Positions 45,438-54,592 of a DNA stretch of 64,000 nt are shown here, piece by piece. Within the stretch, counting starts at the first letter, position 1; each line of letters starts with the position of its first letter. The notes under the pieces were generated by a model. That model did no database searches, was not told where the DNA came from, and saw nothing but the letters and a program-made list of their open reading frames with translations. The translations under genes were made by a program, and so were the position numbers. The stretch is from Chitinophagaceae bacterium (GTDB lineage Bacteria; Bacteroidota; Bacteroidia; Chitinophagales; Chitinophagaceae). The stretch lies in the NCBI GenBank assembly GCA_040509495.1, contig JBEVKW010000172.1, forward strand, positions 4,887-68,886, written 5' to 3'.

Positions 45438-47375
45438 TCAGCTGGTTGAAAAAAAATCCTTTTTGATCCCCAGCTTTTTGATCTTGGAAGCGAGCGTTGT
45501 TGGTGGCACACCCAGTATTTCTGCTGCTCCGCCTGAGCCACGGATACGGCCATTGCATTTACGGAGCACCCTTAATATGTGTTCACGTTCATTTTCCTCG
45601 ATCGTCCGGTCATGTTCAGCCTGGGTGGTGGCTGGAATGCTGTTTATTGCCGATGGAAGAACGATGCCGGATATCTCCGTTCCTTTTGTTGTCAATACAC
45701 TTCGCTCGATTACATTTTCCAGTTCCCTGATGTTCCCGGGCCATGTGTAGTTCTGAAGCGAATGAAGTGCATCCCCCGTCAACCGTACTATCTTTTTTTG
45801 ATTTTGCTCAGCATACAGTTTTAAAAAATGATTGGCCAGTAAAGGGATGTCTTCCTGGCGTTCGCGCAGTGCGGGGAGATGAATGGGGAATACATTCAGC
45901 CGGTAGTATAGGTCGAGTCGAAAGCGTCCTTCAGCCACTTCCTTTTCAAGATTCCTGTTCGTGGCCGCTACGACCCTGGCATTGATACGGATGGTTTCTT
46001 TACCTCCCACCCGCTCGATCTCTTTTTGCTGCAGTACGCGCAACAGCCGCGATTGCATTTCCAGCGGCATTTCTCCTATTTCGTCAAGGAATATTGTCCC
46101 ATTCCCAGCCTGTTCGAATTTGCCGATGCGTCGTTCGGTGGCACCTGTAAAAGCGCCTTTTTCATGACCGAACAATTCCGACTCGATCAGTGAAGAGGGT
46201 AATGCGCCGCAGTTGACCTTCACCAATGGACCATTCTTGCGGTGGGAAAGCCGGTGAATGTTGTCTGCAATGCTTTCCTTTCCGGTACCACTTTCCCCGG
46301 TGATCAGCACTGATGTTTCAGCAGAAGCCACCTGCATAAGAAGGTCGAACACCTGCATGATCGGCGCACTTGTTCCTACTATGCCGGCCAGCCGGGCAAC
46401 AGGGACATTGTCTTTTTCCGCGTTTGATGCAACCACCGGCTCTATGGAAGGATTATCCATGCTTTGGACGATCGTCAGCAGGCTATAGCGAAGCCGTTCA
46501 CAAAGATCGACATGGTCGGGATCGAAGCCTGCCGGTTGCCGGCTGAAAAAACTGAAATAGAAAACGCTGCCATCAGTCGCCTCCCAAATGGGCACCACCA
46601 GGTTACTTCTCATGCCGTAATGGTGCTTAATGGCTTCTTTCATTCCGGATGACTGTGTGGCCTTCTCGAAAGCTGCGTTCGTGTACAGGGTTACATTTGC
46701 TTCAGGGGAAACCTGTTCAAGCCGCTGCCTGAGTTCATGTGTCTTTAGCTTCGTTGCCAATTGAAACTCTTCCACACCGATCACATTGTATTGATCGTAT
46801 CCTGTTCGTAAAAATGCGGTGAGTTCATTCAGGTCATTGCGGGCGGTCTTTCGCACTGCCACTGCCAGGTCGTACGGAATCAATGGCTGCAAGGCCTGCA
46901 CCAGCTTCAGCATTTTGGTCGGATGATCGCCATCAGATTTTTTCAGCGCCAGCAGTTGTCGCTGAAAAAATGTTTCTTTCCGCAAACCTGATTCCCTGCC
47001 GTACTCCTGGTGATAAGCCGCGATCTCCATTGTTACCAGCAGATCCCTTTCCCTGAATGGTTTGATCAGGAAGCCGAATGGATGTGTTGCTTTAGCTTCA
47101 TTCAAAATATCTTCATTCGAATTGGCTGATAAGTAAATAAACCCGATCTGTTCCTTTTTCAGGTATCTCGCAAGATCGATCCCTGTTTCTTTTCCTGAAA
47201 GAAATATATCTACCAATACCAGGGCGGGTCTTTCCTTTGAGATCAGTTCAATAGCTTCACGAACAGAGCGGGCTACGGGCTGCACTTCATAACCGGCTTT
47301 GTTCAACATCAACCGCAAATGATTTGCTTCGACGAACTGATCTTCTACAATTAAAATTTTATGTGGCGTGTCCAT
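45438..47375 (-). CDS. Sigma54-dependent response regulator, paralog of 24564..26531
   Basis: REC (ILIVEDQFVE...LVLVDIFL), GESGTGKE, GHEKGAFTGA and the HTH GAAEILGVPPTTLASKIKKL. The domain order is the same as in the first copy. Confidence 0.9.
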   Translation of the reverse strand: MDTPHKILIVEDQFVEANHLRLMLNKAGYEVQPVARSVREAIELISKERPALVLVDIFLSGKETGIDLARYLKKEQIGFIYLSANSNEDILNEAKATHPFGFLIKPFRERDLLVTMEIAAYHQEYGRESGLRKETFFQRQLLALKKSDGDHPTKMLKLVQALQPLIPYDLAVAVRKTARNDLNELTAFLRTGYDQYNVIGVEEFQLATKLKTHELRQRLEQVSPEANVTLYTNAAFEKATQSSGMKEAIKHHYGMRSNLVVPIWEATDGSVFYFSFFSRQPAGFDPDHVDLCERLRYSLLTIVQSMDNPSIEPVVASNAEKDNVPVARLAGIVGTSAPIMQVFDLLMQVASAETSVLITGESGTGKESIADNIHRLSHRKNGPLVKVNCGALPSSLIESELFGHEKGAFTGATERRIGKFEQAGNGTIFLDEIGEMPLEMQSRLLRVLQQKEIERVGGKETIRINARVVAATNRNLEKEVAEGRFRLDLYYRLNVFPIHLPALRERQEDIPLLANHFLKLYAEQNQKKIVRLTGDALHSLQNYTWPGNIRELENVIERSVLTTKGTEISGIVLPSAINSIPATTQAEHDRTIEENEREHILRVLRKCNGRIRGSGGAAEILGVPPTTLASKIKKLGIKKDFFSTS

Positions 47376-47379
47376 TTGA

Positions 47380-53196: not shown

Positions 53197-53218
53197 TTCT
53201 GTGTCAAAATCAAAAACA

Positions 53219-54592
53219 ATGAAAGCTCTTTCACTGGTCATTTTTGTTTTATCATTCTGTGAAGCCAGGTCGCAACAGCTGCCCTCTTTCCGGCAGCTAC
53301 GGTACGAGGAAGATTATTCCTCTTTAAGGAACGATACCAGCCATCGCCGGCACCCGTCAATAAAGTACCTGTCCCTTTCCAGGAACGGCAACACGTGGTT
53401 AAGCATGGGAGGAGACATCAGGTACCAGTATCAATGGTTCAGAAATGAGAACTGGGGCAAGGCGATCGCGGATAAAGATGGTTTTTTGCTGACGCGTTAT
53501 CTCGTACACTCGGACCTTCACCTTGGGGCAAAAACCAGGTTCTTTGTGCAATTGCAGAGCAGTCTTGCCAATGGGAAAGAGACATCGCCTTCACCGGTTG
53601 AAGAAAATCAGCTTGATCTTCACCAGGCTTTTGCTGACGTGGTGTTCGTCAGGCGTGGCGTCACCGGGTTGACCTTGCGGGTCGGCCGCCAGGAACTTCT
53701 GTACGGATCGCAGCGGTTGATATCTGTCCGTGACGGCCCCAACAACCGTCAGTCATTCGATGCCGCCAGGATGATCTTCAGCGACGGGTATGGTACGGCA
53801 GACCTGTTCTTCTCTCATTTTGTCCGTTCAAAACAACGGATCTTCGATGATGGTTTCAATAATAATGTCAAGCTCTGGGGCGCTTATCTTGTAAGGAACA
53901 AAGTACCGCTGGTAAGAAATGCGGACCTCTATTATCTGGGGCTTCACAAAAGCAATGCAGTATTTGCAGACGGTATTGGCCGCGAACTGCGTCACTCCAT
54001 TGGCAGCAGGTTATGGAACACTTCTTCCGGAGCCCGCTACGATGTGGAAGGGCTGTACCAGTTTGGAGATCTTGCAGGTAAAGCTATCAGCGCATGGACG
54101 ATCTCTGTCAATGCCGGATACAAATTCAACTCATGGAAATGCAGGCCCGAGCTTGCCATAAAAACCGAACTGATCAGTGGCGACGCCATTTCCGGCGATG
54201 GCCACCTGAATACCTTTAATCCCTTATTTCCAAGAGGTGGTTATTTCGGCCTGGTATCATTGATCGGCCCTTCCAATCTGTTCGATATTCATCCTTCCAT
54301 TGCATTGAATATCTCACCGGCTACCACCTGGAACTTCGATTGCGATCTGTTCTGGCGATACAGCCGCCAGGATGGAATATACCAGCCTAATGTTGCGCTT
54401 ATCTATGACGGTAGCGCCAGTAAGAGCTTATCGATCGGACGGCAGTATTCCACGGACATTGTGTATACGCCAAACCGTTTTCTTTATTTGCGTGGAGAAT
54501 TTACTTTCTTTAAAGCTGGTCAATTTCTGAGAGAGGCCGGCCCCGGCAAAAATATTCTGTTCGCCGCCGCTACGATCCAATACAGGTTTTAG
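53219..54592 (+). CDS. Alginate-export-family outer-membrane beta-barrel porin
   Basis: Signal MKALSLVIFVLSFCEARSQQ. FRQLRYEEDYSSL... and alternating beta-strand patterning ending ...IQYRF are typical of the Alginate_exp family. The track ORF starts at the GTG at 53201. Confidence 0.7.
   Translation: MKALSLVIFVLSFCEARSQQLPSFRQLRYEEDYSSLRNDTSHRRHPSIKYLSLSRNGNTWLSMGGDIRYQYQWFRNENWGKAIADKDGFLLTRYLVHSDLHLGAKTRFFVQLQSSLANGKETSPSPVEENQLDLHQAFADVVFVRRGVTGLTLRVGRQELLYGSQRLISVRDGPNNRQSFDAARMIFSDGYGTADLFFSHFVRSKQRIFDDGFNNNVKLWGAYLVRNKVPLVRNADLYYLGLHKSNAVFADGIGRELRHSIGSRLWNTSSGARYDVEGLYQFGDLAGKAISAWTISVNAGYKFNSWKCRPELAIKTELISGDAISGDGHLNTFNPLFPRGGYFGLVSLIGPSNLFDIHPSIALNISPATTWNFDCDLFWRYSRQDGIYQPNVALIYDGSASKSLSIGRQYSTDIVYTPNRFLYLRGEFTFFKAGQFLREAGPGKNILFAAATIQYRF

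Follow-up and report, generated by a model that had tools for sequence, protein, structure and literature searches.

A hydrolase and porin locus of a Chitinophagaceae bacterium as a probable member of a sigma-54-dependent operon family in Bacteroidota

Introduction

What does a bacterium of the Chitinophagaceae do with a sensor kinase, a sigma-54 activator, a row of hydrolases and an outer-membrane porin encoded side by side, and where does such a set of genes come from? The question is raised by positions 45438-54592 of a 64,000-nucleotide stretch of DNA (contig JBEVKW010000172.1 of assembly GCA_040509495.1; this whole stretch is called the window here), a group of genes referred to below as module 2. 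A second group, module 1, lies in the same window, and an initial annotation made from the sequence took module 2 to be a rearranged copy of it. We propose instead that module 2 is one of a family of sigma-54-dependent hydrolase/porin operons of the Bacteroidota, often present in several copies per genome, and we put the probability of this account, with wiring, function and history taken jointly, at roughly 0.6.

Results

Gene content of module 2

The gene set was verified with an open reading frame (ORF) listing and Pfam scans of the window. Each gene listed by the initial annotation was found where it had been placed, and its parts list and divergent layout, with a kinase and an activator on the minus strand facing a row of genes on the plus strand, were borne out. 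The features of the locus are:

45438-47375, minus strand: EBP2, a sigma-54 enhancer-binding response regulator with receiver (REC), predicted GAF-fold, AAA+ and HTH_8 domains (Pfam, motifs, AlphaFold/Foldseek)
47380-49632, minus strand: HK2, a TPR-HisKA_2-HATPase_c sensor kinase (Pfam, translation, hydropathy)
49877-49888: weaker upstream palindrome ACGAAAGCTCGT, 30 bp before the main palindrome
49905-49920: perfect 16-bp palindrome CGACGATATATCGTCG with its core ACGATATATCGT at 49907-49918, a putative EBP2 site
49974-49988, plus strand: sigma-54-type -24/-12 element TGGAATGAGATTCGT (geometry and relatives; a weak match to the position weight matrix, PWM)
50014-50799, plus strand: ABH_A2, a cytoplasmic serine alpha/beta hydrolase of 261 amino acids (aa) that leads the row (Pfam Abhydrolase_6, gene call, orthologues)
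50910-51611, plus strand: ISO2, a YcaC-like cysteine hydrolase of the isochorismatase superfamily with a signal peptide (Pfam, NCBIfam, PDB)
51642-51991, plus strand: ABH_B pseudogene of a secreted hydrolase (tblastn with intact orthologues)
52065-53078, plus strand: EH2, a Cif-like Asp-nucleophile alpha/beta hydrolase lipoprotein (PDB matches, active-site columns)
53201-54592, plus strand, with ATG 53219 as the likelier start: Alginate_exp (AlgE-type) outer-membrane beta-barrel, the porin (Pfam)
54609-54634, plus strand: terminator-like hairpin and T-run directly 3' of the porin gene

The genes of HK2 and EBP2, both on the minus strand, are separated by 4 bp. The base composition of module 2 is not distinct from that of the rest of the window and thus gives no sign of recent transfer. 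A scan for sigma-70 promoters and terminators returned promoter matches below chance, and only the hairpin after the porin gene was retained from it. The gene of the first hydrolase stands as annotated, but its listed TTG start at 49888 does not and is probably wrong; the start is placed at ATG 50014 because all orthologues and an independent gene call, made on a public contig of identical sequence, give proteins of 261-265 aa.

A family of related loci in Bacteroidota

When the linkage was tested for uniqueness it proved to be shared with Niastella, Chitinophaga, Taibaiella, Flavobacterium and a soil-type contig. Six related loci contain a core of a TPR-HisKA_2 kinase, a REC-GAF-sigma54 activator, a hydrolase of 261-265 aa (ABH_A, first in the row in all six), EH2 and an Alginate_exp porin:

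L067, Niastella koreensis GR20-10: activator and kinase divergent from ABH_A, EH2, a 334-aa protein, Amidohydro_3, DoxX, YdcZ, Alginate_exp and ABH_B
L069, Niastella metagenome-assembled genome: kinase, activator, ABH_A, EH2, Alginate_exp
L071, soil-type contig from a public sequencing run: kinase and activator divergent from ABH_A, an intact ABH_B, EH2 and porin, with no isochorismatase
L073, Flavobacterium crocinum: kinase, activator, ABH_A, EH2, Amidohydro_3, a metallo-beta-lactamase-like protein, Alginate_exp
L074, Chitinophaga sp. CF118: ABH_A, EH2, Alginate_exp, kinase, activator
L075, Taibaiella lutea: divergent layout as in the window

At least four orders of Bacteroidota share this combination and, judged from these comparisons, the conserved core of the row is ABH_A, in some loci ABH_B, EH2 and the porin. 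The closest relative is L071, with identities of 71% for the kinase, 74% for the activator, 73% for ABH_A, 83% for EH2 and 70% for the porin. Since L071 has an intact ABH_B and no isochorismatase, the isochorismatase appears to have been added after ABH_A, and ABH_B broken, in the lineage of the window.

A sister type of locus is found in most of 65 loci from other genomes that were anchored on the isochorismatase. Here the row opens with the isochorismatase and porin and closes with the kinase and activator, the order being isochorismatase, porin, a secreted M17_N-like protein, Amidohydro_3, DoxX, a Dps-type ferritin, DUF1275, kinase and activator in Chitinophaga, Mucilaginibacter, Siphonobacter and Edaphocola. 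Arcicella and Flectobacillus have a variant of it with a two-domain glyoxalase-type dioxygenase and YdcZ. In 44 of the 65 loci the isochorismatase and the porin are no more than 10 kb apart, which exceeds chance, and protein clustering of these loci gave 44 with the porin, 30 with the kinase and 53 with Amidohydro_3. Hybrids that begin with ABH_A and also carry the isochorismatase are present (L002, L003, L017 and L039), and the genome of Chitinophaga sp. CF118 carries the two types on separate contigs (L020 and L074), so that several modules per genome, as in the window, are normal. We note that Amidohydro_3, the most constant partner of the isochorismatase (53/65), is absent from both modules of the window, and that the Amidohydro_3 protein at 12829-14670 of L020 has a Cys/His-rich tail (CCAGSCDVHGHQHD...GCSCFAF) that looks metal-binding.

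The initial annotation did not recognise the combination as a described system, and a keyword search of the literature found no published description of it either. All the parts are of known kinds; it is their combination that is conserved and apparently uncharacterised.

Control region

A family palindrome, TACGAWATWTCGTA, precedes the first gene of these operons and was found at the equivalent place in about 30 related loci. In 25 of 29 palindrome-promoter pairs it is followed after 67-70 bp by the GG of an element of the form TGGCAY-N5-TTGN, and in most of those pairs the distance from this GG to the ATG is 37-48 bp. Among the 29 aligned promoter sites of relatives, G2, G3, A5 and T12 never vary and G14 hardly does, a pattern of conservation that is, on this alignment, that of a sigma-54 promoter; flavobacterial sigma-54 promoters have been reported with the typical -24/-12 form (PMC9723704). 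The family core ACGAWATWTCGT has a single exact match in the window, at 49907-49918 in the divergent intergenic region, with 68 bp from the palindrome to the GG and 39 bp from the GG to ATG 50014. The second palindrome 30 bp upstream recurs at equal spacing in N. koreensis. The co-occurrence of activator and palindrome suggests that EBP2 binds the palindrome at 49905-49920. A scan for the canonical TGGCAC-N5-TTGC with up to two mismatches gave 56 matches in the window, where 71 were expected, and no helpful one in the intergenic region. The promoter emerged only through comparison of the relatives.

The best PWM match in the whole window (rank 1 of 127,966) is a site in module 1, TGGCATATTAATGGACT at 24282-24266 on the minus strand, which sits between EBP1, the module 1 activator, and the first module 1 hydrolase, about 90 bp before ATG 24191, and is kept in Terrimonas ginsenosidimutans as TGGCACATTAATAGACT. 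Both activators of the window therefore adjoin promoters of this kind. No TACG palindrome stands in front of the module 1 promoter, so that module 1 likely uses another activator site; EBP1 and EBP2 appear, from these sequences, to read different upstream sites. The stretch upstream of the module 1 promoter contains an inverted repeat, TGACT-N16-AGTCA, and, just upstream of the promoter, a hairpin with a T-run (24382-24414, minus strand) that looks like the EBP1 terminator.

Other matches to these signals were also recorded. A candidate promoter for ISO2, CGGCATCCCGGTTAT at about 50836, is separated from the ATG by 72 bp and lacks a palindrome at the 69-bp distance upstream; a separate ISO2 promoter is treated as unproven. 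The sequence TGGCAATTTTATTGTCA (50947-50963, plus strand; matrix score 13) falls inside the part of ISO2 that codes for the signal peptide and is probably a chance match. A metagenome scan for the 16-bp palindrome gave 119 matches, mostly chance for a 16-mer, with 6 beside activator genes and no closer relative of module 2 among them. Palindrome-promoter pairs also occur at 8101-8146 (minus strand) of L040, where two tandem palindromes precede a gene for a chloroperoxidase-like hydrolase, and at L031 19272 (plus), L003 4528 (minus) and L033 16440 (plus); the genes behind these four pairs encode the chloroperoxidase-like hydrolase, an Abhydrolase_3 esterase, an AraC-type regulator and an activator. 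Because such pairs precede other nearby genes, the regulon seems to reach beyond the main operon. In F. crocinum (L073, about 12130-12300) a long run of short tandem repeats with TAACTTCTAACTCT-like units occupies the gap between activator and ABH_A, upstream of the palindrome.

Relation of module 2 to module 1

Comparison within the window confirmed that the two modules are built from the same protein families, with 67.6% identity between the isochorismatases (ISO2 and ISO1, 18443-19138), 44.8% between the activators and 30.7% between the kinases. One explanation for this, and the one favoured by the initial annotation, is that module 1 underwent a recent segmental duplication and that the copy was then rearranged and decayed. 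The presence of the same domain families twice within 30 kb and the identities of the isochorismatases and activators both speak for it. However, the module proteins are not each other's closest relatives in any of the cases tested (isochorismatase, kinase and activator). Among relatives of the isochorismatase and kinase drawn from the 65 isochorismatase-anchored loci, one genome per species, ISO1 ranked 53rd of 62 relatives of ISO2 and fell in another clade, with 52 proteins of other genera closer; ISO1 is thus a family member, as had been said, but not the closest relative. HK1 ranked 30th of 30 and is the least similar to HK2, and a protein search returned more than 100 activators that share 54-78% identity with EBP2, from genera such as Flavobacterium, Niastella, Taibaiella and Dyadobacter, all of them closer to it than EBP1 is (45%). 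Module 2 has orthologous loci of like layout elsewhere, and its palindrome has no counterpart before the module 1 promoter. Terrimonas ginsenosidimutans carries module 1 at 93-98% protein identity, so that the window belongs to that genus or close to it, and the scan that returned it found no module 2 isochorismatase in that genome. Nor is one module decaying as a whole, as had been thought, since the decay is confined to a single gene, ABH_B. We therefore regard a recent duplication as very improbable indeed, and the rankings, the foreign orthologues and T. ginsenosidimutans together lead us to view the modules as old, separate members of one family.

The signalling pair

EBP2 has Pfam matches to Response_reg (PF00072, E 3e-16), Sigma54_activat (PF00158, E 4e-72, 168/168 positions), AAA_lid_14 and HTH_8 (E 1e-6). 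A Walker A motif, GESGTGKE, and the GAFTGA loop are present, and the phospho-acceptor of the receiver, D56, is invariant across 41 aligned sequences. Its orthologues occur in many Bacteroidota. The middle domain, described as GAF-like by the initial annotation, stayed below the Pfam threshold (GAF_2, E 0.086). When residues 116-330 were modelled with AlphaFold (pLDDT 85.5, pTM 0.81), the top Foldseek matches were GAF domains, namely 3p01 (TM 0.68-0.73), 3k2n and PDE6, with the GAF of a Chlorobium sigma-54 regulator among the matches; this domain was run alone because AAA+ matches had swamped it in a search with the full-length model. On the predicted structure, then, EBP2 carries a GAF fold between receiver and AAA+, in line with the earlier description, at a sub-threshold sequence score.

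HK2 consists of a signal-like N-terminal segment, about 480 aa of TPR, a strong hydrophobic segment at residues 499-523, HisKA_2 (PF07568, E 1e-25; H-box HHRVKNN) and HATPase_c (PF02518, E 4e-8), and its TPR region is probably periplasmic, with 499-523 as the single transmembrane segment.

The pair shares with the NtrC-class systems NtrB/NtrC, ZraS/ZraR and AtoS/AtoC a kinase with a REC-AAA+-HTH activator, GAFTGA, an upstream palindrome and, here as a putative element, a -24/-12 promoter. The AAA+ core of EBP2 scores 340-370 bits against the models for NifA, AtoC, NtrC and ZraR, and its Foldseek matches include NtrX, NtrC1 and LuxO, but no NCBIfam equivalog cut-off was reached. Differences from this class are the additional GAF-fold domain predicted between REC and AAA+, a HisKA_2-type kinase whose large TPR domain lies outside the membrane, an upstream site whose distance from the -24 element is short and constant (69 bp), and a cargo of hydrolases and a porin instead of nitrogen, zinc or acetoacetate genes.

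The hydrolases and the porin

ABH_A2 has the serine motif GHSLGG and no signal peptide, and no relative in the PDB was found for it by sequence search. The ORF of 127 aa listed at 51611-51994 is an artefact over the pseudogene of a secreted alpha/beta hydrolase: by tblastn, residues 1-57 of the intact orthologue align to 51642-51812 and residues 208-262 to 51827-51991 in a different frame, so that residues 58-207 (about 150 codons), including the GHSWG nucleophile motif, are deleted. The decayed gene reported earlier is hence real, and is explained by a single internal frameshifting deletion. The surviving ends are still 58-80% identical to the intact orthologue, which argues that the deletion is young. 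Intact ABH_B weakly resembles esterases of the pyrethroid hydrolase, salicylic-acid-binding protein 2 and hydroxynitrile lyase type.

ISO2 (Isochorismatase PF00857, E 7e-24) has as its best solved relatives Escherichia coli YcaC (PDB 1yac, E 6e-31) and Pseudomonas aeruginosa PA1202 (PDB 4wgf). It shares their Asp/Arg/Cys site, D42, R109 and C142 aligning to D19, R84 and C118 of YcaC, but has a signal peptide, where none was seen in the aligned YcaC chains, and at 123.7 bits against the NCBIfam YcaC model (cut-off 310) it stays below equivalog level. The likeness gives no substrate, as the PDB names are generic ('YcaC gene product', 'probable hydrolase').

EH2 is an Asp-nucleophile hydrolase with a lipoprotein-type signal and Cys32. 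The initial annotation had put it in the same branch as the proteins at 19734-20645 and 21538-22416; what it shares with these is the Asp-nucleophile/HGxP class, at 29-31% identity over about 130 residues, and the closer grouping did not hold. Its matches in the PDB are Cfl1 (Cif-like 1, E 3e-65) and Cif (E 5e-54). With Cif, an epoxide hydrolase secreted by P. aeruginosa, and the Cif-like proteins 7jqx and 7jqy it aligns end to end and has in common the unusual HGFG motif, the Asp nucleophile, the His base and export; motif, nucleophile and base are kept in EH2 and in 120 of 120 orthologues. In Cif epoxide ring opening depends on the pair His177/Tyr239 (PMC12918957). These columns, for which the residue numbering was confirmed, are Trp/Phe in EH2 and in all 120 orthologues, Glu153 is replaced by Asp, and an invariant His-Trp stands immediately before the Phe throughout this Cif-like lipoprotein subfamily of Bacteroidota (52065-53078 and the 120 orthologues). 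The lipoprotein Cys is followed by a low-complexity linker, a further difference from Cif, in at least 100 of the 120. Going by these residues, EH2 should not be classed as an epoxide hydrolase. The two also differ in setting: Cif lies in a TetR-controlled operon, unlike the EH2 gene with its predicted sigma-54 control.

The porin matches Alginate_exp (PF13372, E 6e-61) over residues 66-448 and 386 of 395 profile positions, and orthologues of 455-466 aa stand at the operon end in relatives; no PDB chain was matched by sequence search. Alginate_exp extends over the whole barrel, as in AlgE, the alginate export porin of Pseudomonas. Unlike AlgE, the module 2 porin has no alginate synthesis genes nearby: no genes for alginate polymerisation or the periplasmic scaffold were found in the window, and no alginate synthesis genes among the Pfam-annotated called genes of the six related loci listed above. 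In Bacteroides thetaiotaomicron an Alginate_exp gene (BT1414 context) lies in the nrfAH nitrite-reductase operon (PMC10434189), which makes a small-solute channel likelier than a polymer exporter. The uptake role at which the porin hinted in the initial annotation is plausible.

Neighbouring genes

Between the modules, at 39455-43194, a Crp-family regulator is divergent from genes for a cytoplasmic YcaC-like isochorismatase, a luciferase-like monooxygenase and a pirin. This isochorismatase, the third of the window, shares 36% identity with ISO1 and ISO2; the pairing of Crp with a YcaC-like gene also occurs in the Sphingobacterium loci L004 and L005. Further Crp-family genes lie at 44641-45222 and 55674-56276. 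On the minus strand at 15199-17532, directly downstream of the module 1 isochorismatase and YdcZ, is a gene for a patatin-like phospholipase fused to an Omp85-type barrel. Synteny with T. ginsenosidimutans breaks there, as this gene was not detected in the matching locus of that genome. An ORF of 153 aa at 31431-31892 (minus strand) appears to be a partial second copy of the gene for a phosphodiesterase/sulfatase-type protein at 12225-13184 (minus strand), given 89% identity to residues 108-236 of that protein, and about 1.5 kb from it an ORF for an IS200-like (Y1) transposase (29376-29933, plus strand) adjoins the module 1 kinase.

Discussion

We propose that HK2 senses a periplasmic cue through its TPR domain and phosphorylates the receiver of EBP2, whose GAF-fold domain could take a second, small-molecule input. 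EBP2 would then bind the palindrome at 49905-49920 and, 68 bp further on, activate sigma-54 RNA polymerase at the -24/-12 element, giving a single transcript for ABH_A2, ISO2, the dead ABH_B remnant, EH2 and the porin that would end at the hairpin after 54592. The porin may pass a small, probably anionic, exogenous organic compound over the outer membrane; EH2 and periplasmic ISO2 would hydrolyse it in the envelope, and ABH_A2 would act in the cytoplasm. In the history of this lineage an isochorismatase would have been gained after ABH_A, and ABH_B would have lost its roughly 150 codons. The gene content, the conserved linkage, the geometry of the control region and the intact motifs are direct observations. 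We infer from sequence the circuit of kinase, activator and promoter, the expression of 50014-54592 as one transcript, the placing of EH2 and ISO2 in the envelope and the passage of a solute through the porin. The circuit draws on anatomy and conservation, and the part that concerns substrate and function is less certain. Because the core is one of hydrolases and a porin under sigma-54 control, we favour uptake and hydrolysis of an exogenous compound and rate it somewhat above a role in defence.

A number of points weigh against this account. The chemistry of EH2 cannot be assigned from Cif, as it is without the epoxide-opening residues, rpoN is not within the 64-kb window, and a nutritional role is weakened because no inner-membrane importer or downstream catabolic enzymes are present. 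That one gene of the row is dead points to relaxed selection on the complete set in this locus. The promoter TGGAATGAGATTCGT deviates from the family pattern, with A for the usual C at position 4 and C for the usual T at position 13, and matches the family PWM with a score of 3.6 (rank 360 of 127,966), where most relatives have 6-21. Relatives often add genes for Dps, DoxX, pirin, YceI and ring-cleaving dioxygenases, which resemble stress defence, and an induced porin would be odd in pure detoxification.

The weak promoter and the gene destroyed by a frameshifting deletion could both be taken to mean that module 2 is a silent remnant, its diverged promoter dead and the operon on its way to loss. 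Against this, the remaining six reading frames run to full length and retain intact catalytic or signalling motifs, and the unusual GGAAT...TCGT promoter is common to L071, where a near-identical CGGAATACATTTCGT stands at the equivalent place. As the proteins of the two loci are only 70-83% identical, this argues for selection on the promoter. Its position, the L071 element and the GGAAY variants in L069 and in L002 from Flavobacterium agrisoli all support the window promoter, and we think a silent remnant improbable. Another possibility is that module 2 belongs to a stress-defence regulon in which the kinase senses envelope, oxidative or electrophile damage, the hydrolases clear reactive xenobiotics or damaged envelope compounds and the porin exports anionic products. 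Related loci with Dps, DoxX, DUF1275, YceI, pirin and two-domain glyoxalase-type dioxygenases would fit this model, and we take that gene set to resemble quinone/electrophile regulons such as that of Bacillus subtilis MhqR. The surroundings of module 2 are rich in OsmC, pirin and Crp-type regulators and hold the third YcaC-like gene, and the sigma-54 regulon of Flavobacterium psychrophilum has been tied to envelope stress and protein quality control (PMC9723704). However, none of those stress genes lies inside module 2, the most constant partners are hydrolases and the porin, and a new outer-membrane channel under toxic stress would be counter-intuitive. A stress-defence regulon is the main alternative to our account, but we consider it rather unlikely.

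Module 2 has a parallel, by analogy only, in the polysaccharide utilisation loci with SusC/SusD, which similarly combine a dedicated envelope sensor, an outer-membrane channel and surface or periplasmic hydrolases. In both cases there are many paralogous loci per genome with mix-and-match content. It differs in its AlgE-type barrel and predicted sigma-54 control, and Pfam scans found no SusC/SusD pair and no glycoside hydrolases within 45438-54592.

The control signature of a palindrome, 69 bp and a -24/-12 element could help to catalogue the complete regulon of any genome, and could serve in reporter strains for finding the inducer. The large Cif-like lipoprotein subfamily, which departs from the residue rule for epoxide hydrolases, is a concrete target for enzymology. 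Bacteroidota of soil and freshwater are known for glycan foraging with SusC/SusD, and how they sense and process compounds other than sugars is much less clear. As a tentative suggestion, which we hold to be more probably wrong than right, the phylum may carry multi-copy 'hydrolase-porin loci' that are to non-carbohydrate small molecules (esters, amides, lactones and epoxide-like compounds) what polysaccharide utilisation loci are to glycans. An AlgE-type channel would replace SusC/SusD, each locus would be equipped with a TPR-HisKA_2 kinase, a REC-GAF sigma-54 activator and a fixed-geometry promoter of its own, and the Cif-like lipoprotein would be a new catalytic variant without the known ring-opening pair. 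If the loci turn out to serve ordinary scavenging of the esterase type, the finding would still allow better annotation of the common 'alpha/beta hydrolase' and 'alginate export' genes of these bacteria.

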